Made by a program: the position numbers and the translations under genes. From NCBI GenBank assembly GCA_035873375.1, contig JAYWMQ010000006.1:135706-199705 (forward strand): a stretch of DNA of 64,000 bases. The letters run 5' to 3'. The DNA comes from Nitrospirota bacterium. Its GTDB lineage: Bacteria; Nitrospirota; Thermodesulfovibrionia; Thermodesulfovibrionales; JdFR-85. The notes under the pieces are model-generated. The model saw only the letters and a list, made by a program, of their open reading frames with translations, ran no database searches and was not told where the DNA came from. This document shows positions 13,315 through 57,501 of the stretch, piece by piece (position 1 is the first letter of the stretch; every line of letters begins with the position of its first letter).

Positions 13315-13450
13315 AAGGGAGCGATATGACAGATTCTTCACTCATTCTCGATGGACATCGTGTCCATCTGCGAGGTAATTTCGCAATTAACCATCCAGGT
13401 GAATTTACAGCGAAATTAAAACCGTTCAGACTCTATCATACCGCTTCCTT
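13315..13450 (+). repeat. Structured intergenic repeat, copy A
   Basis: Terminal inverted arms 19/23 matched. Core cactcattctcg, hairpin atggac/gtccat, stem taatttcgc/gcgaaatta, ccatccaggtgaa, aaaaccgttcag. Confidence 0.85.
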
Positions 13451-13477
13451 TTCAGGTTTTGTAATCAAAAAACCCGA

Positions 13478-15418
13478 GTGAAGCAATCCCGAAGAATATA
13501 TCAGGATAACACACCCCTTCAGGACGCAATTGAAAAGTGGCTTGCGGTAGTCGAACCGCTTCCGCCAAAGGAAGGGGAGTTCATTCCCGTGCATCAGTCC
13601 GCGGGCAGGATAACCGCCCAGGCAGTACAGGCCATGATATCCTCACCCTTCTTTCACTCCTCTGCAATGGACGGCTACGCAGTACGTTTTCATGAAACCT
13701 TTGGTGCAACAGAGACACATCCCCTGCGCCTAAAACTCAACGAAGAGGCAATCCCCGTAAATACCGGCGAGCCCATGCCCCATGGGTTCAATGCAGTCAT
13801 AATGGTTGAGGATGTCAGCATCGAGGGGTCTTTTATCGAGATAACGGAATCCGTCACCCCGTATCAGCACGTAAGGACCGTGGGTGAAGATATTGTCCAG
13901 ACTGAGTTGATACTGCCGGAAAATCAGAGGATCAGGCCTGTTGATATCGGTGCCATACTTGCGGGCGGTCATACCGGGGTATCTGTCAGGAAAAAACCAC
14001 TCGTAACCCTGATACCAACCGGCAACGAGGTGGTGGAGCCGGGAACTACACCGCTCAGAAAAGGTAATATAATCGATTTCAACAGTTACATGACAGGTGC
14101 CCTCATCAATCAGTGGGGCGGGGAGTTCAGGAGAGAAGGCGTTGTTTCAGACGATAAGGAATTGCTTAAGGAGAGAATTTCAGAGTCATTGAAGGATAGC
14201 GATCTTGTTGTGGTTATCGCAGGTTCTTCTGCAGGGACAAAGGACTTTACACCAAATGCGATAGGAGAGCTCGGCAGGATAATCGTCCACGGCATCAATA
14301 TAAAACCGGGCAAGCCCGTACTCCTTGGCATGGTTAAGGACAAGCCGGTTATCGGACTTCCGGGTTATCCGGTCAGTGCCTATATAACATTTGAGTTGTT
14401 TGCAAAACCGCTTGTTTACCATTTGCTCGGCATTGTGCCGGAGATGCCCGGGATATTAAAGGCCTGGCTCTCCAGACCAATAGCCTCTTCACTCGGACAG
14501 GAGGAGTTTCTGAGGGTAAAGGTTGGAAAAGTAGGTGGCAAATACATAGCAACACCATCAGGCAGGGGGGCCGGTGCCCTGATGACGCTTCAAAGGGCTG
14601 ACGGGATTGTCAGGATTCCGGCAATGAGCGAAGGCCTGGCACAGAAGTCCGAAGTTGAGGTAACCCTTTTGAGATCAAGAGATGAGATTGAGAATACAAT
14701 TGTATGTATCGGAAGTCATGACAACACACTTGACATCCTTGCAAACCTCCTGAAGAAGCGGTCCCACTCCTACAGCCTCTCTTCAGCACATGTGGGCTCA
14801 ATGGGGGGGATAATGGCTATAAAGAAGATGGAGACACATATCGCGGGTACTCACCTTCTTGACGAATCCACAGGAGAGTACAATATCCCGCTCATTAAAC
14901 GGCTTCTCTGTGATATACCTCTCTTAGTGGTAAATCTTGTTCATCGTCAACAGGGACTCATAGTCCGGAAGGGCAATCCAAAAAGGATAAGGGTGATTGA
15001 AGACCTTACCCGTGAGGGAATTGTATTTATTAACCGGCAGCGTGGCTCCGGGACCAGACTCCTGACGGACAAGTGTCTGAAGGACAGGGGGATCCCCCCA
15101 CAGGAGATAGAGGGCTATGACCGGGAAGAGTATACCCATATGGGCGTGACCTCTGCAGTTGCTACAGGTGTGGCAGACGCCGGGATGGGGATTCTTTCGG
15201 CTGCAGTGGCACTTGGGCAGGAGTTTATCCCGGTGGCAAAGGAGAGGTATGACCTGATAATAAGGGGTGAGTATATCGAAACCCCAAAGATACAGTCTCT
15301 CCTTAATATCCTGACATCCGACAGCGAGTTCAGGAATCTGGTAACGACCCTGGGAGGGTATGATGTGAGTGACATGGGGAAAGTTATCTACACAACCGTG
15401 GGCCCTCCGCGCAATTGA
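13478..15418 (+). CDS. moeA: Molybdopterin molybdotransferase MoeA fused to a periplasmic-binding-protein-like domain
   Basis: SAMDGYA, TGEPMP, KPGKP, LPGYPVSA. C-terminal GSHD...GSMGG...INRQRGSGTR domain. GTG start. Confidence 0.9.
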   Translation: MKQSRRIYQDNTPLQDAIEKWLAVVEPLPPKEGEFIPVHQSAGRITAQAVQAMISSPFFHSSAMDGYAVRFHETFGATETHPLRLKLNEEAIPVNTGEPMPHGFNAVIMVEDVSIEGSFIEITESVTPYQHVRTVGEDIVQTELILPENQRIRPVDIGAILAGGHTGVSVRKKPLVTLIPTGNEVVEPGTTPLRKGNIIDFNSYMTGALINQWGGEFRREGVVSDDKELLKERISESLKDSDLVVVIAGSSAGTKDFTPNAIGELGRIIVHGINIKPGKPVLLGMVKDKPVIGLPGYPVSAYITFELFAKPLVYHLLGIVPEMPGILKAWLSRPIASSLGQEEFLRVKVGKVGGKYIATPSGRGAGALMTLQRADGIVRIPAMSEGLAQKSEVEVTLLRSRDEIENTIVCIGSHDNTLDILANLLKKRSHSYSLSSAHVGSMGGIMAIKKMETHIAGTHLLDESTGEYNIPLIKRLLCDIPLLVVNLVHRQQGLIVRKGNPKRIRVIEDLTREGIVFINRQRGSGTRLLTDKCLKDRGIPPQEIEGYDREEYTHMGVTSAVATGVADAGMGILSAAVALGQEFIPVAKERYDLIIRGEYIETPKIQSLLNILTSDSEFRNLVTTLGGYDVSDMGKVIYTTVGPPRN

Positions 15419-15456
15419 TATTTCAATCAGCGAGACAAATCCTGTAATATTATAGG

Positions 15457-16938
15457 ATGAAACCTTTAAGCTTCTCTTTAGACTTAAAACTCCCCCTGCC
15501 CTCCCCTGATGACAAGAGGGCAGATGTGGAGAGACTCAGTGAGACCGCTGCCATAGAGGACATTCATGTTCCCCTTGAGCTGATGAGGGCCCTGCCCACG
15601 GTGCTGAGGGAGAAGAATTTTGCAATAAAGCCTGTTTTCGGCATAACCGGACCCTGCACCAGATTACTGGAAATAGATTCAGAACAGGTCTTCGGCATTG
15701 CCATTGATATCGGCACCACCAACATAGTCGCCTCCCTTTTTGACTTAAAAAGCTCAAAAAAGATTTCAGAGAAGCACATGACGAATCCCCAGACCGTTTA
15801 TGGCGATGACATTCTCAGCAGGATGCATTTTGCCATGAGCCGTGGGGTTGAAGAACTGCAGAGGGCGGTTATTGGTGGCCTGAACAGTATAATCGCATCA
15901 CTCGCGGATGACGCAAAGATAAAGACCCCAAGGGTATTTGCTGTCACTGTGGCTTCAAATACAGCAATGACCCATCTTCTGCTCGGCCTTGATGTGAGCA
16001 ATATTCCGGTTGAACCCTACATCCCTGTTGTACATTCACCTGATTTTCTGAAAGCAGGTGAGCTTGACCTTGCAGCAAATCCCGAAGCAGTAGTCTATGC
16101 ATTTCCGAATGCCGGCAGCTATGTAGGCGGCGACATTATCTCGGGAATACTCTCTATCGGAATTCATAAGGCTGAGGCCCCGACTGTCCTTATTGACGTG
16201 GGAACAAATGCAGAGATTGTGGTCGGCATGAAGGACTGGCTCTTCGTAGGCGCCGGGGCTGCGGGTCCTGCACTTGAGGGGGGGATTTTCAGTGCAGGCA
16301 TTAGGGCTCAGCCAGGGGCCATTTACAGGGTTGACATAGATCCTGTCACTCATGATGTAAGATATAAAACCATTGAAGATACCCCGCCGGCTGGTATCTG
16401 TGGCTCGGGTGTAATTGACCTGATTGCAGAGCTGTTTGAAAAAGGCATTATTGACAGTATGGGGAGATTCAGGGATACAGCAGGGGTAATCAAGACAGAA
16501 AACGGCCCTTCGTTTGTTGTCGTACGCACTGAAAGAGCAACGATAGAGGTTAGTGAACGGGAAATCAACAATTTTCTGAGATCAAAGGCAGCAATGTTTA
16601 CATCCCTTCATGTACTGCTTAAATCCCTTGGTCTTGGGTTCAGAGATATAGACAGGTTTTATATTGCAGGAGCTCTCGGTTCAGGGGTCAGGGTTCGGAA
16701 GGCAATAGGTATCGGGATGCTTCCTGATATACCTGTTGAGAAATATATCCCCGCCAATAACTCCTCGCTCAACGGGGCTGAGTTGTTACTCACAAATGGC
16801 GAACTGTACAGGGAAGTGGAAAAGATACGCTCAATGATTACCTACAGGGAAATGAACACTGACACCGAGTTCATGAAGGAGTTCCCGGATGCCCTCTTTC
16901 TTCCACACCTGAACCCCGACATCCTTACTAATGGATAA
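15457..16938 (+). CDS. ASKHA-family ATP-dependent corrinoid reductive activator (RACo/DUF4445-like), lacking the N-terminal 2Fe-2S domain
   Basis: IDIGTT, NPQTVYGDDILSR, YVGGDI, IDVGTNAE, AGPALEG, GICGSG. No N-terminal ferredoxin Cys motif. Confidence 0.85.
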   Translation: MKPLSFSLDLKLPLPSPDDKRADVERLSETAAIEDIHVPLELMRALPTVLREKNFAIKPVFGITGPCTRLLEIDSEQVFGIAIDIGTTNIVASLFDLKSSKKISEKHMTNPQTVYGDDILSRMHFAMSRGVEELQRAVIGGLNSIIASLADDAKIKTPRVFAVTVASNTAMTHLLLGLDVSNIPVEPYIPVVHSPDFLKAGELDLAANPEAVVYAFPNAGSYVGGDIISGILSIGIHKAEAPTVLIDVGTNAEIVVGMKDWLFVGAGAAGPALEGGIFSAGIRAQPGAIYRVDIDPVTHDVRYKTIEDTPPAGICGSGVIDLIAELFEKGIIDSMGRFRDTAGVIKTENGPSFVVVRTERATIEVSEREINNFLRSKAAMFTSLHVLLKSLGLGFRDIDRFYIAGALGSGVRVRKAIGIGMLPDIPVEKYIPANNSSLNGAELLLTNGELYREVEKIRSMITYREMNTDTEFMKEFPDALFLPHLNPDILTNG

Positions 16939-17011
16939 CAGCGAAACCCAAGCCACAGACTCTTCCGTGATTAATTTGACCCTCCGTTTAATTTTATGAG
17001 ATAATGACAGG

Positions 17012-18742
17012 ATGAAAAAAAGGTTGTTGTTATTACTTATATCACTCACCCTCGTCTCCTGTGTAACTCCTGCGGTAATAAAAAAGCCGGCTACCGGGAC
17101 AGTGGTTGAAACAGTCAGCACCAAAGAGGCCGGGATTCCATCAACAGCCAATGAGGAATCTTCCCTGAACTATATCCTCGGCTATCAGGCCGAGATGGAA
17201 GGCCGATGGGCTGAAGCACTCAAATACTACGAAGAGGCGTCAAAACTTGACCCTGCTTCTCCGTACCTGAAAGTACAGATTGGACGCATCCTGCTCAGAA
17301 CCGGCAAGGTAAAGGCTGCAACAGAAAAGATAGAAGAGGTAATAAAGAGTTATCCTGATTACCTGCCCGCCCTCAGACTCCTTGGACAGCTTTATAATGG
17401 TCAGAAAAAAACCGCCGATGCCATCAGGATATACGAAAGGATAATCAGGATTGATCCAGCTGACACTGAGGCGCATCTCTTCCTGGGTATGCTCTATGCC
17501 GCTGAAAAAAAGTACCCGGAATCCATAAATGTCCTCGAAAAATTTCTTGAAAAGAGGCCGGATAATCTGATGGCCCTTTATTATCTTGGGTCGGTCTATT
17601 TTGATATGAAGGATATTGAAAAGGCAGAGACGTATTTTCAAAAATGCCTTGAGTTGAAGCCCGACTTTGACGCCGCCCTTTACAGGCTCGGCCTCATCAG
17701 TGAGGTCAGGGGTAAAAACGATGAAGCAATAAAATACTACAAAAAGGCATCGGAAATTAATCCGTTTAATTTTCAGGCCAGAGAAAGACTTTCGAGGTTA
17801 TACATAAAAGAGAACAAACTGCAGGAAGCCATAGATGAGCTTGAAAAGATAAGCAGTCAATTTCCCAAAAACACAGAGATACATAAAAGACTCGGGCTTC
17901 TGTACTTTGACAATAAAGAGTATGAAAAGGCTATTGATCAATTCAGGCTCGTGATAGAGGCAAAACCTGATGACCTTGCAGTAAGGTATTACCTCTCCCT
18001 TGCCCTTGGCACACTCAAAAAATACGACATGGCCATAGATGAGCTCAAGGCGATACTCGCCCTGGACCCAAAAAATATCCAGGCATTCCTGAATCTGGCC
18101 TACATCTATTCAGACTCCGGACAATACGAGGATGCAATAAAGACATATGATGAATTAATTGCAATTGACGCCAAACCTGAATATTATATATACAAGTCAT
18201 CAAACCTGCTGAAACTTAACAAGACCAAAGCTGCTGAAAAGACGCTTAAGGAGGCGATTGAAAGGTTTGGAGAAAATGACGAACTCTACTTTAATCTTGC
18301 AGTTGTCTACGAAAAAGAGAAGAGATTCGATGACATGGTCAAATTTCTCAAAAAAACCTTAAGCCTCAATCCAGACCATGCTGATGCACTTAATTTCCTT
18401 GGGTACAGTTATGCTGATAAAGGGATTAAACTCGACGAGGCATTATCAATGATACAGAAAGCCCTCTCTCTTATGCCGGGTAACGGTTACATTATTGACA
18501 GCCTTGGCTGGGTTTATTATAAACTCGGCAGATACGAAGAATCCCTGAAAGAACTCAGACGGGCTGTAAAGACAGTAAAGGATGACCCTTTGGTTTACGA
18601 GCACCTCGGTGATGTGCTTACAGCCATAGGGAATGAAAAAGAGGCCATTGAGGCATACAGGAAGGCCCTTCTTTACTCTGAAAAAGAGGAAGGCCTTAAA
18701 GAGCGGGTCGAGAAAAAGCTGGAAGAATTATCCAGCAAATAA
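17012..18742 (+). CDS. TPR-repeat lipoprotein
   Basis: Lipobox LVSC. Many TPR units; C-terminal LNFLGYSYAD...DSLGWVYYKLG. Confidence 0.88.
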   Translation: MKKRLLLLLISLTLVSCVTPAVIKKPATGTVVETVSTKEAGIPSTANEESSLNYILGYQAEMEGRWAEALKYYEEASKLDPASPYLKVQIGRILLRTGKVKAATEKIEEVIKSYPDYLPALRLLGQLYNGQKKTADAIRIYERIIRIDPADTEAHLFLGMLYAAEKKYPESINVLEKFLEKRPDNLMALYYLGSVYFDMKDIEKAETYFQKCLELKPDFDAALYRLGLISEVRGKNDEAIKYYKKASEINPFNFQARERLSRLYIKENKLQEAIDELEKISSQFPKNTEIHKRLGLLYFDNKEYEKAIDQFRLVIEAKPDDLAVRYYLSLALGTLKKYDMAIDELKAILALDPKNIQAFLNLAYIYSDSGQYEDAIKTYDELIAIDAKPEYYIYKSSNLLKLNKTKAAEKTLKEAIERFGENDELYFNLAVVYEKEKRFDDMVKFLKKTLSLNPDHADALNFLGYSYADKGIKLDEALSMIQKALSLMPGNGYIIDSLGWVYYKLGRYEESLKELRRAVKTVKDDPLVYEHLGDVLTAIGNEKEAIEAYRKALLYSEKEEGLKERVEKKLEELSSK

Positions 18743-18764
18743 CTATTAACCTACAATCCTGCCA

Positions 18765-19607
18765 ATGACATCACTCTATTCACCTGCAAAGATAAACTGG
18801 TTTCTTAAGGTCCTCGGCAAAAGAGCAGACGGTTACCACAACATCTATTCCGTCATGCAGAGGATTGCCCTCAGTGATACACTCTCTTTTGAAGAGACAA
18901 AAGGGGAGATAGTGATAGAGTCGGACCTTGAGATTGCAATGGAAGAGAACCTTGTTTACAAGGCTGCCGCACTTATGAAGAAACATACCTCCTGTTCTTC
19001 AGGAGCCAGGATAAAACTTTTAAAAAAAATACCCCTTCAGGCTGGGCTCGGCGGCGGCAGCAGTAATGCAGCCACTACACTTTTTGGATTAAACAACCTG
19101 TGGAAGACAGGGCTTAACCTCAGGACATTAACAGAGCTGGGCGCAAGTTTGGGCTCGGACGTGCCTTTTTTCCTGAACGGCCCCATTGCCGTTGTTGAAG
19201 GCAGGGGAGAGGTGATTACACCCTTGCAGGCTTCAACGAAGGAGATTACACTGCTCATTGTAAAGCCTGGACACGGTATATCTACTGCCCTTGCCTACAA
19301 AGAAGTAGCAGAATATTCTGAGATGGACAGGTCCCGGCTGGACCTGCTCATTAAGATACTCAAGTACGGTCCGATTGACAGGCTGCCTGAAGTCCTCGGT
19401 AATGACTTTGAAGAGCCGGTATGCAGGCTGTATCCTGAACTCAAAGATATCAGGGACAGGCTATTGAACCAGGGGGCAATTGCTGCCTTGCTGTGCGGCA
19501 GCGGCTCCAGCATCTTCGGGGTATTCACAAACAATGCATATGCAGAAGAGGCGTCAAGGTCATTTGGAGACCTCTGGCACGTGGTAACGGAAACGGTTTC
19601 CCATTAA
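18765..19607 (+). CDS. ispE: 4-diphosphocytidyl-2-C-methyl-D-erythritol kinase
   Basis: PAKIN, GLGGGSSNAA, GSDVPF, GSGSSIF. Confidence 0.95.
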   Translation: MTSLYSPAKINWFLKVLGKRADGYHNIYSVMQRIALSDTLSFEETKGEIVIESDLEIAMEENLVYKAAALMKKHTSCSSGARIKLLKKIPLQAGLGGGSSNAATTLFGLNNLWKTGLNLRTLTELGASLGSDVPFFLNGPIAVVEGRGEVITPLQASTKEITLLIVKPGHGISTALAYKEVAEYSEMDRSRLDLLIKILKYGPIDRLPEVLGNDFEEPVCRLYPELKDIRDRLLNQGAIAALLCGSGSSIFGVFTNNAYAEEASRSFGDLWHVVTETVSH

Positions 19608-20290: not shown

Positions 20291-20294
20291 CGCC

Positions 20295-21869: not shown

Positions 21870-21946
21870 TGAAAATCCATAATCCTTTGTTTGGTTCTAC
21901 CGAGTTTATAAACCGAGTCTTTTAATTCCAAATTGAATACAGGCTT

Positions 21947-22122
21947 CTCTGTGCTTTCCCGAAAGCTTTCGGGATGGTTTGTTCTACTATTTGTTGTTTC
22001 TCTCAGTTTCCTGAAGAGTTCCCGAAAATATCTTGTTTTTCTCTGTGCCTTCCCGAAAGCTTTCGGGATGGTTTATTCTGCCTCATTTCAGTATTCCAAT
22101 CAGTTTCCCGAAGAGCCTTCCC
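21947..22122. repeat. About 95-bp imperfect tandem duplication containing the palindrome TCCCGAAAGCTTTCGGGA twice
   Basis: Palindromes at 21957-21974 and 22051-22068. tcagtttcc(t/c)gaagag at 22003 and 22100. Confidence 0.8.
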
Positions 22123-23230
22123 TGTAAATATGAACATCCCTCTGGGGGAATGGAATTCTTATGCCGGTTTCCCTGAATTTCCAGTATATGGAGCTGTTTA
22201 TCTCGTGAATTGTCAGCCCCCGAACAGCGGGTTCCCTGGCCCAGCACAGGAGTTCAAATCTCAGCGATGAATTCCCGAATTCCCTGAACCTTACCCTCGG
22301 GGCAGGAGAATCAAGAACGTTTTTATTCTCAAGGGAAATATCGAGCAGGGTTTTCTCAACAAGGTCAATATCACTTCCGTAGGCCACTGAAATCGGTATC
22401 CTCACCCTGAATCTCGGTACCGGCGCACTTTCATTGATAATCTTTGTATTTGCAACGATTGCATTCGGGATGGCTATCAATATATCATCTCTTGTCTTGA
22501 TCCGCGTGCTTCTCAACCCTATTGCCACAACCTCCCCCCGCTCCCCCCCATCCAGCACAATGTAGTCCCCGATCTTGAAAGGCTTGTCTATAAAGACACT
22601 GACACCCCCGATAAAATTGGCTATCGTATCCTTTGCGGCAAGGGCCACGGCAGCCCCTGCAATACCGGCTGAGGCGATAAGGGGGGTGATGTTTATCTTC
22701 CAGTAAGATAGTATTATTGTCAGGGAGGCAATTATTATGGCAACTTTGGCGATATTTTCAACCAGCGGTACGATATCCCTGCCCAATCCGGTCACATCGG
22801 ATACCTTGTTGATGGTATGTTTAACTATCAGCCTGCTTATTCTTATTATGGTTATAGTCCAGATCAAGGTAATTACCGTATAAAGCAAGCCATTCGAATA
22901 AAATATAATCTTTTGAGGTGGATTCAGGTATAAAACGGCATTAATCAGGCCAATCAGGATTATGGTCAGGAATATCGGATAATGGATAAGGTCTATTATT
23001 ATGTCGTCAATCTCTGTTTTCGTGAAACTTGAAAACCGACGCAGAACCTTGTCCACAAATAAGTCGGCAATCTTTGCCACCACCACAAAGGCCAGAACAG
23101 AGATCGCAGCATTAACATAGGGAGAGGATGATATGTTGAAAGATTCAATAAGTCCTGTCATGTTCTTTATTGTATTATTTTTTATACCAAAAATAAAAAT
23201 GTAGACTACATTTCTCCAAACATTTTTCAC
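22100..23230 (-). CDS. mscS: Small-conductance mechanosensitive channel family protein
   Basis: N-terminal TMs, GAAVALAAKDTIANFIGG, PFKIGD, IPN, IRIPFPQRDVH. Start may be ATG 23161. Confidence 0.92.
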   Translation of the reverse strand: MKNVWRNVVYIFIFGIKNNTIKNMTGLIESFNISSSPYVNAAISVLAFVVVAKIADLFVDKVLRRFSSFTKTEIDDIIIDLIHYPIFLTIILIGLINAVLYLNPPQKIIFYSNGLLYTVITLIWTITIIRISRLIVKHTINKVSDVTGLGRDIVPLVENIAKVAIIIASLTIILSYWKINITPLIASAGIAGAAVALAAKDTIANFIGGVSVFIDKPFKIGDYIVLDGGERGEVVAIGLRSTRIKTRDDILIAIPNAIVANTKIINESAPVPRFRVRIPISVAYGSDIDLVEKTLLDISLENKNVLDSPAPRVRFREFGNSSLRFELLCWAREPAVRGLTIHEINSSIYWKFRETGIRIPFPQRDVHIYREGSSGN

Positions 23231-26794: not shown

Positions 26795-26890
26795 CTCTAA
26801 CCTTTTGCTCCTTGCAATGACTATAATGGACTATTTACGAGTTCATCATATATACCCGCCTCCAGCGACAAAACAGCGACGGGCACTGTA

Positions 26891-27028
26891 AAGGAGAGAG
26901 ATGATAAACCCTGAACGGTTTTAAGTATCACAATAGCTTCACCTGGATGGTGAAGCGTGATACTTCCCTCGGAGTCCCGACTGGATGTCGGGACGAGAAT
27001 GAGTGAGGGGTTTATCATCTCTCTCCTT
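26891..27028 (-). repeat. Structured intergenic repeat, copy B
   Basis: Perfect 21-bp terminal inverted repeat aaggagagagatgataaaccc. Internal stems aagtatcac/gtgatactt, ttcacc/ggtgaa and tcccgac/gtcggga. Confidence 0.9.
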
Positions 27029-27133
27029 AAAACCTCTTATCTCTGAATCACGGTAAGATAATGATTAAATCCTGAGATTAAAAACCTCCATTCCCCTCAA
27101 ATAACCTTTCATCACAAAATCCATACATATACT

Positions 27134-31122: not shown

Positions 31123-32999
31123 CAGTGAATTATATGAACCCGGTACCTTCCCTTATTCGTGCCCTTTGCATCAGTAAACGGCACCTCCACGAGCGCTATA
31201 TACCTGCCGTCTGGTGATATGTCAGCCATGAAAAAGACCGGACCTTCCGTGGGATAAAGATAGATGAGTTTATCCATACCGGATCCCTTCCTTGATGTAT
31301 CAAAGAGAGTGGCCCCAAAAAAGGATGTCATACCGCCCCTGCGGGAGCCTGCCATCCCTGCAACGGCATTAACAGTAAAGAGCCACCTGCCGTTCCTGGA
31401 GAGATAAATGCCCTGCATGGAGCCGTAGGACTTCCATTTCCATCTCAGCCTGCCGTCAAAACCAAAGGCATAAAACTGATTTGCCGCAGGATGGGGCGCG
31501 GGTTTCTGCACCTTGCCTTTTACAGCACCTGAAGGAATGGAGGTTCCGGGCAGAACAAAGTAGACAGCATCAGGCCCGACCCTGGCATAGCTTATGTAGG
31601 ATGAGACTGGAATATCCCCGATCAGGACAGGTGTACCGATCTCCCTTATCCACACGGGACTGTTCTGTTGAAATCTCTTTCCCTCTACCTTTACAGCACT
31701 CTCTGTATCGAAGAACATTCCCCTGCCGTCATTAAGCCCGATTGCCGCATACCTGCCGTCCCTGGAGAGGGCAACCCCCTGCCAGGCACTGGCCGTCTCG
31801 TAATACGGCCTCAGGGGCGGCACCCTGTACTCCCACAGGACCTCTCCTGTCCTGCCGTTGAGGCAATAGAGTGTGCCGTTTCCGTACAGGGAATCAGTGC
31901 GCTCAGGTGGACGCCATGTTGACGTAAGAAGCAGGAGTTTCTCCCCACTGGCTGAGATATCAAACCATGTAAGGCTGTAGGGAAGCGGCCTGTCCACTGG
32001 CCACCGCCATTTTATACTGCCGGTCCTGCCGTTGAACCGGTAGACCATGCACCTGTAAAGCCTCCTGCCCTCCTTGTTCCATCCATGTGTGCCGACCACG
32101 ACCACATCACCACCGGGAAGCACCTTCAACTGGTAGACACCCGGAAACTTGTATATCGCATAACGGTCATTTTCCCTCTCAGGCCTCGATGTCTCAATGT
32201 CGTCAGCCAGGCGGTACTTCCATATTTCCCTGCCTGTCATTGCATCAAGACAGTAAAGATACCCGTCAGGTGACTGCTCTCCCACATACAGCACCCTTTG
32301 TCCGTCTATCTCTCCCCATCCAATACGCTTCACCATACCCTCAGCGATCTTCCGTGAGAAGACGACTTTACCGGTCCTCACCTCAACAACCCTGAGATAG
32401 CCCTGAAAACTGCCGATTGCAAGGTATTTATTGTCTTCTGAAAATTTCACGAATGTATCAGGGGCTGTCCCCTCGTCAATGCTGAATGGAACGACCTTTT
32501 CCAGCTCCACCCGCTGAACAAGCATGGGCGAAGGCTTGAGCGGCGCGGTAACCTCCTTCACAAACCGTGCATCTCTGCTGCGCACCTCCACGCTGTATTC
32601 CTCCCCGGGGCTCCATTTAAGGGGAATGAGCAGTTTTTTGTCTGCAAAAAGCACTGTTTCTTCATCCCCTTCGCCCTTCACCCACCTGAAAACCTTTCTC
32701 CCTTTCGAGCGGAGTGTAACCATCTTAAGCCCGCTCAGCTCCACAGCAAGTCCGTCACGGACAAAATAGACCTGAACCCCTGGCTGCTCCTTTATGCAGC
32801 CCTGCACAAAAACAAGCAGCAAGAGAGAGAAAAAAAGGCTCAACCGTCTGAATGATGAGAGATACCGGGGCGCAGGGTTTGAACGGTTTTTTTCGCTGAA
32901 AGCGAAAACCTCGGAGGCAGGCAGAATGCCTGTCGAGAATGAGTGAAAGCCCTGTGCCCCGGTATCTCTCAGGGGTTCCAACTCCAGTATATCAGGCAT
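31122..32999 (-). CDS. PQQ-like beta-propeller protein, probable lipoprotein
   Basis: Hydrophobic stretch ending VQGC. Repeats such as LYCLDAMTGREIWKY, YRFNGRTGSIKWRW, LYCLNGRTGEVLWEY. Confidence 0.75.
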   Translation of the reverse strand: MPDILELEPLRDTGAQGFHSFSTGILPASEVFAFSEKNRSNPAPRYLSSFRRLSLFFSLLLLVFVQGCIKEQPGVQVYFVRDGLAVELSGLKMVTLRSKGRKVFRWVKGEGDEETVLFADKKLLIPLKWSPGEEYSVEVRSRDARFVKEVTAPLKPSPMLVQRVELEKVVPFSIDEGTAPDTFVKFSEDNKYLAIGSFQGYLRVVEVRTGKVVFSRKIAEGMVKRIGWGEIDGQRVLYVGEQSPDGYLYCLDAMTGREIWKYRLADDIETSRPERENDRYAIYKFPGVYQLKVLPGGDVVVVGTHGWNKEGRRLYRCMVYRFNGRTGSIKWRWPVDRPLPYSLTWFDISASGEKLLLLTSTWRPPERTDSLYGNGTLYCLNGRTGEVLWEYRVPPLRPYYETASAWQGVALSRDGRYAAIGLNDGRGMFFDTESAVKVEGKRFQQNSPVWIREIGTPVLIGDIPVSSYISYARVGPDAVYFVLPGTSIPSGAVKGKVQKPAPHPAANQFYAFGFDGRLRWKWKSYGSMQGIYLSRNGRWLFTVNAVAGMAGSRRGGMTSFFGATLFDTSRKGSGMDKLIYLYPTEGPVFFMADISPDGRYIALVEVPFTDAKGTNKGRYRVHIIH

Positions 33000-43635: not shown

Positions 43636-43671
43636 TTTTTTCTTCCTCCCGCGAGAAATTTTTAGTTTTTT

Positions 43672-43882
43672 TCCGGTCTGGACAGGTCTTCCGGCTCAGG
43701 GCGATAAGACAGTTGCGAGTTGCGGGTTCCGGGTTGCGAGTCAAACCGCGTCTCTTTCCTACTCACCCGCCTTCCCGTCATGGTGTTATCCATGACAGTG
43801 GCTTCTTTCGGGCTTTCGTTCCCTTCACGGCTGCGGGGCAGCGGGGGATTTTCACCCCTCTTCCCTGACATCCAGCCTTGTG
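43672..43882 (-). ncRNA. Cobalamin riboswitch 1
   Basis: Minus strand: AGGGAA-GGTGAAAATCC-GCTGCCCCGCAGCCGTGA...GCCACTG...GGGAAGG...GAGCCGGAAGACCTG, directly upstream of the receptor RBS. Confidence 0.93.
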
Positions 43883-44029
43883 GTCAAAATGCGTGTTTAT
43901 AAATTACTGCCTCTGTTCTCACCTCCCTTACTGTCAGATCCCTACTGTCATACTGAACTTGTTTCAGCATCTGCGTGTTACCTCTCCAAGATTTTCATAA
44001 CTTACGGTTTTTTCAGTCATGAACCGACC

Positions 44030-44806: not shown

Positions 44807-44862
44807 ATTTGTACGCCTCCTTTTTATCCTGAATCCGTTAATAAAAAGGTTCCGTCAACGTA

Positions 44863-45000
44863 AGGAAGTGATATGATAGAGTCTGAACGGTTTTAAGTAT
44901 CACAAAGGCTTCACCTGGATGGTGAACCGTGATACTTCCCTCGGAGTGCCGGCTGGATGCCGGGACGAGAATGAGTTCAGACTCTATCATATCGCTTCCT
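44863..45000 (-). repeat. Structured intergenic repeat, copy C (overlaps the nrdG stop)
   Basis: Terminal arms 25/26 complementary. The 94-nt core differs from copy B at 6 positions, including one compensatory pair. Confidence 0.9.
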
Positions 45001-45720
45001 AAAACCTTTTATTCCTGATTCCAGGTTTATATTTCTGATTCCGCATCTCTTCCAAAAGTATCCGGAACCTGCAAGATTTTCATGCAGGCACTCAATATCC
45101 GGATATTCCGGAGAGAGGTCTTCCCTGCATCCTGGAAAAGACCGGAAGACCTGAAGAAAATAACTCTCCACATTCATGAACTGTAACTCCGTCATCATAT
45201 CAAGGAGATCACTCATGCCCAGCCCACTGAAGACGGTTGTTCTTATCTCGTAGGAAAGTCCGCTTCCTGTTATTACTTCAATTGACCGGCGTATCTTCTC
45301 TTTATTGCTCTCCACTCCGGTGACCCCTGCGTATCTGCTGAGTGGAGCCTTATAGTCCATTGCCATATAATCAACAAGCCCCGCTCTCACCAACTCCTCA
45401 AGCCTGTCAGGCCTTGAGCCGTTGGTGTCCAGTTTTATCTGATACCCCATATCCCTCACCTCCCGGAGGAAATCCTCAAGATCGGACTGAAGGAGAGGCT
45501 CTCCGCCTGTCACGACCACTCCATCGAGCAGCCCCTTTCTACTGTCAAGAAAGGAGAGGATTTCATTTTCCGGTATCGGTTCCTTAAACAAATGCGGGTA
45601 AACAAGCTCCTGGTTATAACAGTAGACACATCTGAAATTACAGCCCTGCATAAAGACAATGGCACTGATTTGTCCGGGATAATCTATTAAAGAGAATTTC
45701 TGAAGACCTCCAATCGTCAT
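44977..45720 (-). CDS. nrdG: Anaerobic ribonucleotide reductase activating enzyme (radical SAM)
   Basis: GCNFRCVYC, VTGGEP, KLDTNG; adjacent to nrdD. Confidence 0.93.
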   Translation of the reverse strand: MTIGGLQKFSLIDYPGQISAIVFMQGCNFRCVYCYNQELVYPHLFKEPIPENEILSFLDSRKGLLDGVVVTGGEPLLQSDLEDFLREVRDMGYQIKLDTNGSRPDRLEELVRAGLVDYMAMDYKAPLSRYAGVTGVESNKEKIRRSIEVITGSGLSYEIRTTVFSGLGMSDLLDMMTELQFMNVESYFLQVFRSFPGCREDLSPEYPDIECLHENLAGSGYFWKRCGIRNINLESGIKGFRKRYDRV

Positions 45721-47810: not shown

Positions 47811-47831
47811 TCCGCCTCCCTGGCAGTTCAT

Positions 47832-48044: not shown

Positions 48045-48083
48045 CTCTTTTCCTCCCGCGAGAAAAGATTTTAGATTTATATC

Positions 48084-48290
48084 CGGTCTGGACAGGTCTT
48101 CCGGCTCAGGGCGATAAGACAGTTGCGAGTTGCGGGTTATGAAGTTACGAGTTAAACCGCTTCTCTTTCCTACTCACCCGCCTTCCCGCCATGGTGTTAC
48201 CCATGACAGTGGCTTCTTTCGGGCTTTCGTTCCCTTCACGGCTGCGGGGCAGCGGGGGACTTTCACCCCTCTTCCCTGGCATCCAGCCAG
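48084..48290 (-). ncRNA. Cobalamin riboswitch 2
   Basis: Near-identical to riboswitch 1, including all conserved B12-box segments. Confidence 0.93.
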
Positions 48291-48426
48291 ATGTTTAAAT
48301 TGTCATACTACAGTAGCACAGGGTTTTGATTTTTTTCAATAACCGGATTTTTCCAAAACCGGGTTCTTATCGTTATGCGTTTATTAAGTTTTCAGTACCC
48401 CATAGTCTCTGTGGCGGAAAGGTTCA

Positions 48427-50212: not shown

Positions 50213-50323
50213 AATATCTCTCCTTCATTAACTCTTTATAAATTATAACAAATCGGCACAAATTATTCTTTTTTATTGCGGATTATCTTTATTCCGTTAC
50301 AAGCGGAAAAGGCCCTGTATTAT

Positions 50324-50356
50324 AAAAAGGGACAAGGATCTGCATCCTTGTCCCTT
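50324..50356 (-). terminator. Intrinsic terminator after the aldolase gene
   Basis: 13-bp stem aagggacaaggat/atccttgtccctt with a T run on the minus strand. Confidence 0.8.
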
Positions 50357-50387
50357 CCCACAGCTCTGTTACTGTTTCAAAATATCT

Positions 50388-51734: not shown

Positions 51735-51855
51735 TGCCCCTCCTTAAAATAGTTTTAGGATTATTAGGATTATAATGACTTCAATTACGATAAAAATTAT
51801 ACCATAAATGTTTTATTTTTACAGGCCCTTCTGCCCACCTGTCAGCCTGAGTGAA

Positions 51856-51894
51856 AGATGTTTCTTTTTGCGGTATTTTGCTAAACTATTACTC
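51856..51894 (+). promoter_or_regulatory. Promoter of gnd (extended -10, apparently leaderless); motif shared with 55513-55551
   Basis: AGATGTTTCTTT-N7-ATTTTGCTAAA-N9-ATGAAAA. Confidence 0.6.
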
Positions 51895-52800
51895 ATGAAA
51901 ACATTAGGATATATCGGGTTGGGAAAGATGGGGGGAAACATGGTTTTCAGGCTGCTTGAGCACGGCTGGAACATTGCCGCTTATGACTCCGTCACAGAAA
52001 ATGTAAGGGAAGTGGAAAAAAAGGGCGCCAAAGGGGCAGGTTCCCTGGAGGATCTGGTTGAAAAAGCCGGGACTCCCCGTCTCCTGTGGCTCATGGTGCC
52101 CCATCAGAGGGTTGATAATGTGCTTACGGCACTGACTCCACTCCTGAATAAAGGCGATACGATAATTGACGGGGGAAATTCAAATTACAAGGAATCCATA
52201 AGGCGGAGCCGGGAACTCAATGAAAAAGGGATTAACTTCCTGGACGTTGGTGTGAGCGGCGGGCCCCGGGGCGCAAGGGAAGGAGCCTGCGTAATGGTTG
52301 GGGGAGAGAAAGGGCTTTTTGAAAAGCACGAAGTCCTGTTTAAAGATATCGCTGCCCAGGACGCATATGGATACATGGGAAAGTCCGGAGCAGGTCACTT
52401 TGTAAAGATGGTTCACAATGGAATTGAATACGGTATGATGCAGGCGATTGCCGAGGGTTTTGCGGTAATAAAGGCATCTGATTTTGATATAGACCTCAGG
52501 GAGGTCTGCCGCGTATACAACCACAGGAGCGTTATTGAATCCCGTTTGACCGGGTGGCTGCAGAAGGCATTTGAAGAATACGGTGAAGACCTTGATGAGA
52601 TTTCCGGCAGTGTCTCTCATAGCGGAGAGGGTCTCTGGACAGTAGAAACTGCAAAAGAATTAGGGGTTTCCGTACCCGTTATTGAAGAATCACTTAAATT
52701 CCGTGAGGAATCACAAAAAACCCCTTCCTACACAGGCCAGATACTCTCAGCCCTCCGAAACCAGTTCGGAGGGCATGAAGTTAAGAAAAAGCAGAACTGA
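51895..52800 (+). CDS. gnd: 6-phosphogluconate dehydrogenase, decarboxylating (short type)
   Basis: IGLGKMG, IDGGNS, GVSGG, GHFVKMVHNGIEY, SGEG, ALRNQFGGH. Start moved to 51895. Confidence 0.95.
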   Translation: MKTLGYIGLGKMGGNMVFRLLEHGWNIAAYDSVTENVREVEKKGAKGAGSLEDLVEKAGTPRLLWLMVPHQRVDNVLTALTPLLNKGDTIIDGGNSNYKESIRRSRELNEKGINFLDVGVSGGPRGAREGACVMVGGEKGLFEKHEVLFKDIAAQDAYGYMGKSGAGHFVKMVHNGIEYGMMQAIAEGFAVIKASDFDIDLREVCRVYNHRSVIESRLTGWLQKAFEEYGEDLDEISGSVSHSGEGLWTVETAKELGVSVPVIEESLKFREESQKTPSYTGQILSALRNQFGGHEVKKKQN

Positions 52801-52934
52801 CCCTAATGGTGTCACCATAGAAGATGGATGATGGCCTTTTCCTGATTCCAGCCTTTGCATGGCAAAAACATCATACCGCCTTGTTTTTGTATAGTAGTCT
52901 TCAGCTTACAAAAATCCAAACCGGGCTAACAAAG

Positions 52935-55151
52935 TTAATGCCTGCATTTACGCTTGTGCGGGTGAGTGCTTTCTTTCCCAAAAGTAAACTTTGACACAAA
53001 GGCATGAAAATAATAACCAACATCAAGAAATGTATCATAGGCACCAGCGGTTGTCGGAAAATCCGACGACTTGGTCCTGCCGGTCACAAACACATCTCCG
53101 TTACCGTCAATGGTTAATGAATTAGCGTTGTCCCGGTCAATCCCGCCGAGATAAGTCGATGACAACAGTGTCTCCAAATTACTGTCGAACTTTGATATAA
53201 AGGCATCACTGTCACCATTGTAGGTTGTATCATAAGCGTCGGGAGTTGTTGGAAAGTTTGCTGACACTGTCCAGCCGGTCACGTATAAATCACCGCTGCT
53301 GCCCACCATAACAAAACTGGCTTTATCATTGTCATCTCCACCCAGAAAAGTGGAGGCAAGGAGGTTTTCAAGGTCATTGTCGAACTTTGATACAAAAATG
53401 TCACCACCGCCATTGTAGGTCTCATCGTAAGCACCGGGTGTTACCGGGAAATCCGGCGACCAAGTCAAGCCGGTCACATAGATGTTTCCACTGTCATCTG
53501 TGAAGACTGAATCGGAAGATTCTCCTGCCTCGCCTCCAAGAAATGTAGCAGCGAGAATCCCTTCCAGGTTCCCGTCGAACTTTGATACAAAAACATCACC
53601 ACCACCATTGTAGGTCTCATCGTAAGCACCAGGAGTTGTGATATTGCCTGAACCAACCACATAAACATTTCCGCTGCTGTCAACAGAAATAGCGTTGGCA
53701 CTTGAACCACGGGAAAGTAATATAGAGGCAAGTTGATTTTCAAGCCTTGCATCAAATTTGGCTATGAAGGCACAGTAAATCTCATTGTATACATAGCCAC
53801 AACGAAATGGACTGGCCATATAAATATTTCCGTCATTGTCTAACGTTATTTCAATAGGCCCACTGAAGTCATAATCAGTCAGGAGTCCCAGAAACGTGGA
53901 GGCAAGAAGATTTTCAAGGTCACCGTCAAACTTTGAAATAAAACCATCGAAAAAAGAAGAATCCCATGGCTGAGGATCACCTAAGCCGATAGTCCTGTCG
54001 TAGGCACCGGGAGTTGTCGGGAAGTCTGGGGAAGGAGTTACACCCGCCACATAAATGTTGCCATTACGGTCTATGGCCATGGAATTAGAATAAAAAGCCG
54101 GACCAATAAATGTAGAAGCAAGCAGTTCTTCAAGATCACCGTCGAACTTTGATACAAACGCCTCCACATACGAGAAGATTGTATCAAAAGCCCCTGTAGT
54201 TGTCGGAAAGTCTGATGAGTAAGTTCCGCCAGACACATATATATTGCCGCTGTTGTCCACAATTATGGATATAGCGTTATCTGAACTGCTCCCGCCCAAA
54301 AACGTAGAAGCCAAAAGCGGGTCTATTATGAGAGGCTTTGTCTTATCGTATTCTCCAACCTGAAAACCGTAGGTTAAACCTTGGCTTTGACTTGAAACTA
54401 TATAGTTCGCGGCAATTTCAACCCGCTTGCCGTCAATCTCCTGATAGGCAACCGGCCTTGTCATCTTCACGGTCCCAAAGGCTGTCTCTATCTCGAGTTC
54501 ACCTTCACTGTTCACTCTGAGCCTCTTTGCACCTTCTATCTTCAGGCGTATCTTCTCAACCGAGCCCACCGGTTGGACAGTAAAGAGTTTTTCCACATTC
54601 TTCCCGTATGCCTTCAGCTTAAGCTCTATGCCCTTATATACCTCTCCAAGGTTCACCTCCTGCCACGTCGGGATTCCTGTCCTCCAATTCTCTTTCTTGC
54701 CGATAAAGTAATTGACCCTGGTAACTGATTTATTGATGCCTACCGGATGCAAGGAAATTGATTCCCCTTTCTTGCCGGTCTTCTTCAAGCCAGTAAGGCT
54801 CTCCCTTAATGCCAAGGCCTTTGAAATTGAGCTTTTGGGCCGGAGTGCGGGATTAATATCTCTGTCTTTCGTGTTTTCTGCTGCTGGTTCCGTCTTGACA
54901 AGGCTGTAAACAATCTCGCCCTTGTCTGTTACATATACTGTGCCTGCGAAAGTGTTGGCATAAAACCTGACTGATGCATCCTTGACCTGCCCCTGATTCT
55001 CGATAAAAGGCATCTGAAGCCCTGAGACCTTCTTCATCACAGCACCCCTGTCCACATCTGCTGATGCAACTGTTGGGAAAAGCATTACCAGAAATAAAAA
55101 TCCTGTCAAACTTATCAGACTTACTCGTTTTTTCATGAATATCCTTCCCAT
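52935..55151 (-). CDS. Secreted SBBP (beta-propeller) repeat protein
   Basis: RBS GGAGGAGG before 55151. Signal peptide ...PTVASA, N-terminal FIENQGQ...LIIDP domain, repeated ASTFLGG / GNIYVTG.T.S.DFP.TPGAYD units. Confidence 0.85.
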   Translation of the reverse strand: MGRIFMKKRVSLISLTGFLFLVMLFPTVASADVDRGAVMKKVSGLQMPFIENQGQVKDASVRFYANTFAGTVYVTDKGEIVYSLVKTEPAAENTKDRDINPALRPKSSISKALALRESLTGLKKTGKKGESISLHPVGINKSVTRVNYFIGKKENWRTGIPTWQEVNLGEVYKGIELKLKAYGKNVEKLFTVQPVGSVEKIRLKIEGAKRLRVNSEGELEIETAFGTVKMTRPVAYQEIDGKRVEIAANYIVSSQSQGLTYGFQVGEYDKTKPLIIDPLLASTFLGGSSSDNAISIIVDNSGNIYVSGGTYSSDFPTTTGAFDTIFSYVEAFVSKFDGDLEELLASTFIGPAFYSNSMAIDRNGNIYVAGVTPSPDFPTTPGAYDRTIGLGDPQPWDSSFFDGFISKFDGDLENLLASTFLGLLTDYDFSGPIEITLDNDGNIYMASPFRCGYVYNEIYCAFIAKFDARLENQLASILLSRGSSANAISVDSSGNVYVVGSGNITTPGAYDETYNGGGDVFVSKFDGNLEGILAATFLGGEAGESSDSVFTDDSGNIYVTGLTWSPDFPVTPGAYDETYNGGGDIFVSKFDNDLENLLASTFLGGDDNDKASFVMVGSSGDLYVTGWTVSANFPTTPDAYDTTYNGDSDAFISKFDSNLETLLSSTYLGGIDRDNANSLTIDGNGDVFVTGRTKSSDFPTTAGAYDTFLDVGYYFHAFVSKFTFGKESTHPHKRKCRH

Positions 55152-55512
55152 TTTTGCACCTCCTCCTTTTTGTGCTTCCTGTTTTTTATGTTTTCTGTCC
55201 CGGCCAGAAACGGAATAACCGGACAAAAGGTAAAAATCCGGAGCTCCACTTCCACCACATTCCCTATGTAACACCAGCCACAGAGATGAAAACACTGAGC
55301 AAGGATTAAGGGATTAAAGGTAGCGAGTTTTGATAAGGAAATAAAATATCGGAGGATAGTCTCCCCCTTCGTATTTCAGGCATTCATGTTCATCTTTATT
55401 TTTTTAACTTACACCTCACATATAGCACACTTTACCTCAAACTTCAACATCCTAATAGGTTTATTGATTTATTTAATAACTAAAAGGCTAACCCAACCCA
55501 TACAGAGGTTAC

Positions 55513-55596
55513 AGATGTTTCTTTCTTCAGCATTTTGCTAAAATGTTTAACATGAAAAAAAGTGTAATCACCGACCCTTCTGGTACAGAAGAATGA
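55513..55596 (+). promoter_or_regulatory. Promoter motif duplicating the gnd promoter, plus a 14-aa uORF (55552-55596) whose stop overlaps the pgl start
   Basis: Same motif and spacing as 51856-51901. uORF MKKSVITDPSGTEE ends in an ATGA overlap. Confidence 0.55.
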
Positions 55597-56342
55597 ACAG
55601 GACAATCGGGAACCTCAGGATAAGTATTTTTGAGGACAAGGCTGCGGCAGCAAGGCAGGTTGCTGATGATATTTCCCACTACCTGTCGGATGCAAAGAAA
55701 GGGGGCAGGAAAGTCCTGTTTCTAAGTTCCGGAGGGTCTTCACTTGCAATACTCGATTTCTTTTCAGATGACATATTGGGAGACTATCTGACCATTGGCG
55801 TCCTGGATGAACGATACGACAGGGAAGGCAAAAACAATAATTTTTCCCAGTTATCCAGGACGGACTTTTACAGGAAGGCTCTGAAATCCGGATGTGCCTT
55901 TATTGACACAGGCGTCCGACCGGGACAGACACAGAAGGCCCTTGCCGATTATTTTGAAGGGAAATTGAGGGAGTGGAGAAAAAACAATCCAGCTGGCGGG
56001 ATTATTGCTACCATTGGTATCGGCCCTGATGGGCACACCTCGGGCATATTGCCCTTTCCGGAGGATAAAGACAGGTTTAACACCCTGTTTAACGGTGAGA
56101 GATGGGTTGTGGCCTATGATGCAGCAGGCAAAACACCCTATCCCGAGAGGGTAACAACAACAAACACATTCCTGAAACTGATTAACCGGGCCTTTGTTTT
56201 TGCTACCGGCAGGGACAAGGCTGAGGCACTCCGCCGCATGCAGGAAGACAGACCGGTTTCAGAAGTGCCTGCAGCCATTTTGAAGGAACTCAGGGGGGAT
56301 ATGTATATTGACAGGGAACTTTCTGAAGTTGTTCCAGGATAG
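55593..56342 (+). CDS. pgl: 6-phosphogluconolactonase (glucosamine-6-P isomerase superfamily)
   Basis: SGGSS, DERY, GIGPDGHTSGILP, ATGRDK. Confidence 0.8.
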   Translation: MNRTIGNLRISIFEDKAAAARQVADDISHYLSDAKKGGRKVLFLSSGGSSLAILDFFSDDILGDYLTIGVLDERYDREGKNNNFSQLSRTDFYRKALKSGCAFIDTGVRPGQTQKALADYFEGKLREWRKNNPAGGIIATIGIGPDGHTSGILPFPEDKDRFNTLFNGERWVVAYDAAGKTPYPERVTTTNTFLKLINRAFVFATGRDKAEALRRMQEDRPVSEVPAAILKELRGDMYIDRELSEVVPG

Positions 56343-56354
56343 TGGTTGTGAAAA

Positions 56355-56467
56355 GGGGATAGACAAGGATACAGAGTTTTCACTCATTCTCGATCCCGAA
56401 GTATTTCGGGAGTGAAATAAAAGTGATAATTTGAAACCGTTCAAACTCCATATCCATGTCTATCCCC
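56355..56467 (+). repeat. Structured intergenic repeat, short copy E
   Basis: Terminal arms 22/25 complementary. Core cactcattctcg, hairpin tcccgaa/ttcggga, aaaccgttca. Confidence 0.8.
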
Positions 56468-56544
56468 AAAAATTAACCTGTTTTATACAGACAACCTTGA
56501 GAGTTGCAAAACTACCGTCAAGATAAGGTAAAATAATAACCACC

Positions 56545-57384
56545 ATGTACATACTTTTTGATATAGGAGCGACAAACATGCGCCTTGCTGCCTCAGCAGA
56601 CGGCAGGGCACTTGGGGAGATCAGAAATCTTGCTACCCCGAAAGAGTTTGAAGAAGGAATAGAGGTTTTTAAGGGTGCAGCCCTTGAGCTTGCCAAGGGT
56701 GAAAGGATTGAGGCTGTTGTGGGCGGGATAGCAGGACCTCTGAACAAGGACAAGACAATGGCCGTCGGCGGCCCCAATATTCCCGGCTGGTGGAATAAGC
56801 CACTCAAGGATGCTTTGGAGAAGGCATTAACAACGGTTGCATATATTGAAAATGACGCAGCAATGGGCACACTCGGAGAGGCAATTTACGGAGCAGGCAG
56901 GGGCTATCCCATAGTCGTATATATTACCGTAAGCACGGGCGTTGGCGGGGCAAGGGTAGTCAACGGTAAAATTGATGAATGCGCGATGGGCTTTGAACCC
57001 GGAGCGCAGATAATTGATGCAGGTAACGCCCTCTGTCCCGGGTGGAGTGAAAGGGGATACCTGATAAATTACATCTCAGGCGCAGACATAGAGAGACAGT
57101 GCGGGAAAAAGCCATATGAGATTACTGATGAAAAATTCTGGGATGACAGGGCAAGGTTTCTTGCATACGGCCTCAATAATATAACTGTTATCTGGTCTCC
57201 TGACATCATCATACTTGGGGGCTCCATGATGAACGAGATCGGCATCCCTGTCGAAAGGGTCCGTTATTATTTAAAAGAAGCGTTAAACATATTCCCCACC
57301 CCTCCAGTTGTAGAAAAGGCAAAGCTTGGAGATGAACTGAGCCTCTATGGTGCACTCGCCTATATCAATCAAAACCTGGAATAA
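56545..57384 (+). CDS. ROK-family sugar kinase (non-canonical: no E-x-G-H or Cys-rich Zn motif)
   Basis: DIGAT, ENDA, STGVGG. Confidence 0.85.
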   Translation: MYILFDIGATNMRLAASADGRALGEIRNLATPKEFEEGIEVFKGAALELAKGERIEAVVGGIAGPLNKDKTMAVGGPNIPGWWNKPLKDALEKALTTVAYIENDAAMGTLGEAIYGAGRGYPIVVYITVSTGVGGARVVNGKIDECAMGFEPGAQIIDAGNALCPGWSERGYLINYISGADIERQCGKKPYEITDEKFWDDRARFLAYGLNNITVIWSPDIIILGGSMMNEIGIPVERVRYYLKEALNIFPTPPVVEKAKLGDELSLYGALAYINQNLE

Positions 57385-57434
57385 ACAACTCTTTCAAACC
57401 TTATCTTATAACCTTAAATGCACTGATGATTAAA

Positions 57435-57501
57435 GAGTGACATGATAAACCCTTCACTCATTCTCGTCGGGCATCCGGCCCTCCTCCGAGGTAAGTATCA
57501 C
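57435..57501 (+). repeat. Structured intergenic repeat, truncated left half (copy D)
   Basis: gacatgataaaccctt-cactcattctcg-hairpin-tccgagg-taagtatcac. Confidence 0.75.

Follow-up and report, generated by a model that had tools for sequence, protein, structure and literature searches.

The 64-kb window analysed in this study (the whole stretch of DNA, not any single feature in it) belongs to a Nitrospirota metagenome-assembled genome (MAG) of 2.67 Mb, referred to here as G000. It contains seven copies or fragments of a repeat that represents a mobile, non-coding, structure-constrained family whose insertions lie behind genes and read in the gene direction. Six of these are called copies A to F. 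Core coordinates are those of a covariance model (CM) trained on 28 copies, and the unit ends of A, C, and D were set by comparison with empty sites in other genomes. Copy A (13264–13463, + strand; CM core 13314–13451, 133 bits) is a full inserted unit located directly 3′ of the TAA stop codon of a bactofilin gene and upstream of a MoeA-PBP gene. Copy B (26855–27050, unit ends approximate, − strand; CM core 26889–27030, 152 bits) has a subfamily III closing stem and is located between the CbiZ and TonB genes, in a region missing from the related genomes G001 and G005. Copy C is a 202-nt inserted unit (44823–45024, − strand; CM core 44861–45002, 147.6 bits; folding z-score of ca. −10) flanked by radical-SAM and pterin-binding genes, and its 3′ end adjoins the downstream ribosome-binding site. 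Copy D (56346–56492, + strand; CM core 56356–56466, 55 bits) is a short form whose insertion point is ca. 3 nt past the stop codon of a 6-phosphogluconolactonase-like gene. Another short form with a minimal third helix, copy E (32857–32970, − strand; 100.6 bits), is flanked by the CobN gene and one for a beta-propeller protein, with outer arms ca. 40 nt beyond it on each side. Copy F (57430–57501, + strand; 33.5 bits, model positions 24–119) is a 5′ half downstream of a ROK kinase gene that retains the outer arm, the 5′ strand of the closing stem, the junction, the first hairpin, and the start of the third helix. The seventh is a 5′-truncated copy at about 7575–7738 (− strand; repeat family D9; its arm motif, C42:143289, corresponds to window position ca. 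7584), which retains the AAACC junction, the 3′ strands of the third helix and closing stem, and a remnant of the 3′ outer arm.

The initial annotation, made from the letters of the window, had listed six copies, all of which are present with the motifs it described; copy E was not on that list and was detected by the repeat search. The repeats are real copies, and their pattern is far beyond chance. The "full copies" of 136–138 nt were real repeats but only the inner part of units of ca. 150–200 nt, whose outer arms extend the hairpin. The end fragment placed at 7703–7738 likewise exists but belongs to the longer 5′-truncated copy. The five main copies were said to follow a gene and to read in the sense of that gene, and this holds for the copies of the window, copy E among them.

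The element unit is about 150–215 bp long and consists of a long imperfect inverted repeat that closes into a rod, in which outer arms (P0) and a closing stem of 20–24 bp (P1) surround a three-way junction. In the commonest subfamily, the 5′ outer arm is CCYGAATCCRGnGATAAAnGGTTGTTGG and the 3′ outer arm is CCAATGATTGAGGCTTTTTATCnCTGGATYCGGG. The 5′ junction strand, UUCACUCAUU, and the 3′ junction strand, AAWCCGUUCAR, are nearly invariant; the fixed junction strands include UUCACUCAUUCUCG and CUCCGAGG beside AAWCCGUUCAR. The first branch has a fixed helix, UCUCG/CGAGG, whose basal pair is an invariant U-G, together with a CUC bulge and a hairpin that varies. A long, variable helix forms the second branch and usually ends in an apical UCACC-AUCCR-GGUGA hairpin, and Nitrospirota copies carry C-AUCCR-G loops at both hairpin tips. 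Three closing-stem subfamilies, at least six types of first hairpin, and at least five types of long helix occur in differing combinations, which shows that hairpin modules move between copies and between subfamilies. Short forms lacking part or all of the long helix are represented by copies D, E, and C36:82390. The orientation of the core relative to the arms was constant in 40 of 41 copies. In the remaining one (L005, G006 contig C55:257–398), the core is inverted between outer arms that are otherwise normal, which shows that recombination between the closing-stem arms can flip the core. A coding role for the AUG in the closing stem was considered and rejected, since the length differences among hairpin variants are not multiples of three and third-position variation is absent from the core.

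The covariation of the stems proposed in the initial annotation proved strong. Among 51 copies from many genomes, standard pairs occupied 96.4% of the alignment cells. Double changes were found at 35 of the 40 pairs, in 459 cells compared with 117 in shuffled alignments (none of 500 shuffles reached the observed value) and 43–59 with slid partners. The covariation score was 0.62, compared with 0.19 for shuffles (again 0/500) and 0.08–0.10 for slid partners; several of the alignments were fitted to the CM, and the cell counts are inflated by copies related through descent. Folding z-scores were ca. −10, and sense and antisense folds are equally stable in RNA and in DNA form. The invariant basal U-G pair of the fixed helix can form on the sense strand only. 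Apart from this pair, G-U occupied ca. 14 of 2021 cells, and other mismatches (ca. 72) were about five times commoner. G-U pairs are common as intermediates in RNA families. The near restriction to Watson–Crick pairs therefore looks more like DNA-level complementarity or whole-hairpin replacement than stepwise RNA compensation. The initial inference of a mobile, structured, and covarying family is supported at its core, but its RNA-level reading is weakened by near-pure Watson–Crick covariation with very few G-U pairs. In unbiased arm alignments, the ratio of A-C to G-U mismatches was 82:28 in the closing stem and reversed, 101:231, in the outer arms; these wobble counts do not identify the folded strand because a few inherited positions dominate them in both the closing stem and the outer arms.

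The CM was applied to a set of 41 related genomes and a phylum sample of 301 genomes. G000 harbors 33 full copies detected by the CM (E-values of 1e-15 to 1e-31) and one more truncated by a contig end, plus partial copies. Motif scans of G000 also revealed more than 20 loci that have arms, or a single arm, and no core. These core-less loci are internal-deletion derivatives, and decay runs to solitary arms. In the set of relatives, 28 of the 41 genomes carried the element, with 0–75 copies per genome by the CM; laxer filters gave 111 matches in one MAG of 2.0 Mb. The element was found in 39 of the 301 genomes of the phylum sample, mostly in the same order, and whole genera were without it.

Remnants of the element also lie at two notable gene loci of G000. 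At C29:10373–12937, a recQ gene lies between a 5′ arm fragment and a core-less arm pair of the element. At C46:8203–9868, a short-chain dehydrogenase gene appears split, and a 5′ fragment of the element provides its downstream piece with a GGAAG-N4-ATG start; this gene may have been disrupted or re-started by insertion.

Members from other phyla were retrieved by searching one genome per species for an exact core pattern that spanned CACTCATTCTCG and CTCCGAGG (20 bases). At least 120 stretches were obtained, and about one chance match was expected. The core matches listed include Giovannonibacteria, Niyogibacteria, Terrybacteria, Jorgensenbacteria, and Saccharibacteria of the Candidate Phyla Radiation (CPR), Planctomycetota, Nitrospinota, Desulfobacteraceae and Desulfarculaceae (Desulfobacterota), Latescibacterota, and Auribacterota. 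Judged by these sequence matches, the element occurs in at least eight bacterial phyla. The full architecture was recovered at the loci from other phyla, with scores of 35–150 bits, and all four Watson–Crick pair types were present at every pair of the closing stem, first hairpin, and long helix in a CM-fitted alignment of 35 copies from other phyla. The GC content of the stems tracks that of the host (0.38–0.69), indicating that these loci are not mis-binned Nitrospirota contigs. The invariance of CACTCATTCTCG and CTCCGAGG across phyla is circular because both lay in the retrieval pattern; neither the AAWCCGUUCAR strand nor the pairing depends on that pattern. No exact core was found in IMG/VR, and blastn gave no match in phage or plasmid records.

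The orientation of the element follows that of the genes. Among copies between co-directional genes, the ratio of sense to antisense was 24:3 in G000 (two-sided binomial p of ca. 5e-5) and 20:2 when only full copies were counted. The ratio was 21:4 at loci of other genomes and ca. 8:2 at loci of CPR, Nitrospinota, Desulfobacterota, and Auribacterota read by eye; some of the loci are orthologous, and the counts are thus not fully independent. The initial annotation had argued that orientation is set by transcription rather than replication, and the genome-wide sense bias agrees with this. In the window, orientation flips with the gene strand (A, D, and F on +; B, E, and C on −), which rules out a single replication direction. 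Local GC skew, which gene strand confounds, gives weak support for transcription over replication. As a rule, copies begin at the stop codon of the preceding gene. For the 24 copies that follow a gene in the sense direction, this codon lies a median of 24 nt ahead of the model start, a gap filled by the 5′ arm. The codon is thus placed at or within that arm, also with downstream spacers of 270–450 nt. The neighboring genes are unrelated to each other and include those for bactofilin, MoeA, CbiZ, TonB, CobN, radical SAM, ROK kinase, SecD, GatB, GlmS, and others.

Comparison of sister genomes revealed filled and empty sites for copies A, C, and D, in agreement with the mobility proposed in the initial annotation. 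Copy A is shared by G000 and G006, which is its nearest relative, and is cleanly absent from G001, G003, G005, and G007. Clean empty sites were found for copy C in G001 and G004 and for copy D in G007. The junctions of A, C, D, and C24:36016, four clean pairs, showed no target-site duplication beyond 0–2 ambiguous bases, and no fixed base precedes the 5′ end of the element. The scarless absence of C24:36016 from G005, together with a decayed copy kept in the outgroup G007, indicates a precise loss. In a flank test of 18 loci, the state of most sites varied among four genomes of the same genus. Sixteen copies of G001, G005, or G006 were missing from the matching site of G000; several of these sites keep arm fragments, indicating that they are deletions and not virgin sites.

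The element had been regarded as falling outside the known Rfam families, and we found no match to Rfam 15, its self-cleaving ribozymes, HEARO, and riboswitches included, at the gathering threshold for the window, at E ≤ 10 for copies A and C, or at E ≤ 0.1 for eight loci from other phyla. Copies A, B, and C have no intrinsic terminator on either strand, and one weak sigma-70-like promoter match in them was at the level of shuffled sequences, which speaks against a terminator or a promoter-bearing repeat of the SPRITE type. No published description of the element in Nitrospirota or CPR bacteria was found.

Taken as a whole, the family is probably a non-autonomous mobile DNA element resembling miniature inverted-repeat transposable elements (MITEs), which would be recognized in a folded, single-stranded state and transcribed together with host genes. 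It is small, non-coding, multi-copy, and insertion-polymorphic between strains, as MITEs are. Long imperfect inverted arms are present at its ends, but the end sequences differ by subfamily and phylum. All stems may vary freely provided that Watson–Crick pairing is preserved, with the junction strands fixed. According to this interpretation, the invariant nucleotides left unpaired when the top (sense) strand folds would form the recognition surface for a putative factor supplied in trans. Given its position just behind the stop codon in the sense of the gene, the element is expected to be transcribed within host mRNAs as a rod of ca. 200 nt. The sense bias might arise from strand-specific insertion linked to transcription, or selection might remove antisense copies, which would expose G-rich loops containing Shine–Dalgarno-like or AUG sequences in mRNA (UGGAUG, GGAG, GAGAAUGAG). 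Effects on mRNA, such as processing and stability, would then be a by-product and not a dedicated regulation of particular genes.

Several points weigh against the interpretation as a MITE-like element. The terminal sequences vary among subfamilies and phyla and the interior is conserved, which is the reverse of ordinary MITEs. The lack of a target duplication or fixed target sequence makes a classical DDE-type MITE mechanism unlikely. No transposase was found between element ends: arm pairs 0.3–6 kb apart in G000 enclose only housekeeping genes, as do the element pairs of G017 and G021. Across the 41 genomes, the number of genes for Y1 (HUH) proteins (PF01797) did not correspond to the number of elements. 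The element was found at none of 30 XerD loci in Nitrospirota relatives and at none of 80 loci of the CPR Xer homologue in metagenomes, and a general association with Xer-type recombinases is therefore rejected. All genomes compared are MAGs, whose assemblies could have lost autonomous copies, and the orientation counts are based on gene calls from a crude open reading frame (ORF) heuristic. The sequencing runs in which the locus was found, from hydrothermal vents and sediments, were all DNA runs, with no RNA run among them.

Distinctly less probable than a MITE-like element, yet of appreciable weight, is a cis-acting RNA module in 3′-untranslated or intercistronic regions that serves in binding of a conserved protein, RNase processing, protection of mRNA 3′ ends, or Rho loading, or as a ribozyme, and that has spread secondarily. 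The sense orientation would then reflect selection at the RNA level, as would the constancy of the unpaired nucleotides. This explanation draws its weight from the position at the stop codon, retained even where a long downstream spacer is available, from the basal U-G pair that only the sense strand can form, and from single-stranded motifs that are invariant from CPR to Planctomycetota, with stems that adapt to the GC content of the host. The strong sense bias also agrees with it, and bcr1, ERIC, and Correia repeats provide precedents that act on co-transcribed mRNA (PMC3184786, PMC3049150). Against it, G-U pairs are nearly absent, and A-C mismatches exceed them in the closing stem. In addition, the two strands fold equally well, the neighboring genes have no function in common, copies are dispensable between near-identical strains, no ribozyme or other family of Rfam was matched, and there is no terminator consensus.

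We regard as somewhat less probable again that the element is moved as the folded mRNA-sense strand, either the non-template DNA or the transcript, by an enzyme so far linked to no repeat, with insertion coupled to transcription. Beyond the stop codon, ribosome-free RNA would favor R-loops, which would bare the non-template strand. Such a transcription-coupled single-strand mechanism would jointly explain strand-specific insertion next to stop codons, the lack of a target duplication, and precise loss. It would also explain stems with only Watson–Crick pairs and invariant unpaired bases, and the spread over at least eight phyla including minimal-genome CPR bacteria.

The initial annotation had raised a link to RAYT or IS200/IS605 (HUH) transposases, which is not supported, as genes with a Y1 domain do not track the copy number. 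The element is accordingly unlikely to be a REPIN- or PATE-like substrate that a Y1 HUH transposase (RAYT or IS200/IS605 TnpA) cuts and pastes as a folded single strand. Insertion without a target duplication, at least one precise loss, Watson–Crick-only stems with conserved loops, and six ORFs with a Y1 domain in G000 would fit such a substrate. However, G010, G016, and G019 have 19–33 copies and no Y1 match, whereas G014, G023, and G039 lack the element despite having Y1 genes, and copies flank none of the Y1 genes. The orientation tracks the gene strand and not a single replication direction, and a closing stem that joins the ends, together with a three-way junction, is unlike REP doublets or the subterminal hairpins of IS200/IS605. 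PATEs derived from IS200/IS605 have subterminal hairpins but no terminal inverted repeats, insert 3′ of a fixed tetra- or pentanucleotide, and are oriented with replication. Such a PATE was also rejected specifically, because the ends of the element pair together, the base preceding its 5′ end is variable, and its orientation follows the gene strand.

On a Giovannonibacteria contig (JACOXN010000004.1; L158, 1993–3229), a gene for a XerC/D-like tyrosine recombinase of 311 aa is located between two inverted copies, and copies of the element also adjoin Xer-like genes in L146, L180, and L053. Although these four loci, the attC-like sense placement 3′ of genes, the Watson–Crick-only covariation, and the lack of a target duplication would fit an attC-like or dif-like site for a tyrosine recombinase (integron-integrase- or Xer-like) acting on the folded strand, such a site is highly improbable, because the Xer loci surveyed above are free of the element, its copies are dispersed singly and not in cassette arrays, only the 150–200-nt element and no gene cassette is gained, and the termini have no GTTRRRY-type core (attC RYYYAAC ... 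GTTRRRY).

Among known repeat systems, bcr1 of the Bacillus cereus group is the closest described analogue in behavior, and ERIC, Correia, and BOX are looser ones (PMC3184786, PMC3049150, PMC2229807). The bcr1 repeats (group A bcr repeats) are interspersed non-coding repeats of ca. 155 bp that behave as mobile elements, have a predicted branched cruciform-like fold kept by compensatory changes, and are transcribed with their neighbors (PMC3184786). Unlike the element, bcr1 is confined to one species group and is associated with a 5-bp direct repeat where it inserts. The element differs further in its invariant junction and variable terminal repeats and in the strong sense bias and stop-codon-adjacent position documented for it. 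ERIC, Correia (NEMIS), and BOX are also small and non-autonomous, with long inverted repeats and co-transcribed hairpins, possible orientation-dependent effects on mRNA, and, in BOX-like elements, a modular organization (PMC3049150, PMC2229807). However, their termini are conserved, mostly with target duplications (TA for Correia), they conserve ends or protein-binding sites (IHF) and not an internal three-way junction, and each is confined to a genus or family.

REPINs, which are mobilized by RAYT, resemble the element as non-autonomous, hairpin-forming dispersed repeats without a target duplication that are thought to be read as folded single strands. They are doublets of REP palindromes of 20–40 nt with a conserved 5′ tetranucleotide, which was not seen in the element, and they flank a single-copy RAYT gene, whereas the element shows neither such flanking nor co-occurrence with Y1 genes. 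The attC sites of integrons are likewise defined by structure, with variable hairpins and few conserved unpaired bases, have a set orientation 3′ of genes, and function as single-stranded DNA in folded form. However, conservation in attC lies at the stem base (R and L boxes) and in the element at the inner junction. Integrons carry attC in cassette arrays beside intI, whereas copies of the element are solitary and only the element moves.

Other features were noted in the window. Two cobalamin riboswitches (43664–43890 and 48074–48301, − strand; 75 and 74 bits) are located within a duplicated leader of ca. 250 nt, whose blocks are 92% and 85% identical and which heads two paralogous operons in a region rich in cobalamin, TonB, and CobN genes. 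A 41-nt repeat containing a hairpin, TTCTCTGTGCYTTCCCGAAAGCTTTCGGGATGGTTTRTTCT, occurs twice, at 21945–21985 and 22039–22079 with an offset of 94 nt, ahead of the gene at 22100–23230, and is unrelated to the element. In-frame tandem repeats at 53140–54160 (period of ca. 195 nt) and 1009–2015 (ca. 160 nt) lie in two large − strand ORFs encoding repeat-domain proteins.

The element is undescribed in Rfam 15, in phage and plasmid records, and in the literature searched. It makes up as much as ca. 1% of some Thermodesulfovibrionia-like MAGs, such as the 2.0-Mb MAG with 111 matches, where it gives rise to spurious ORFs, alters gene ends, and probably breaks assemblies. A fixed junction core with free stems and ends, the sense bias at stop codons, and a range from CPR to Planctomycetota set it apart from ordinary bacterial MITEs. 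This inverted conservation, together with the sense bias, the position at stop codons, and the range of phyla, points to either an unknown structure-reading mobilization system or a conserved activity at the RNA level.

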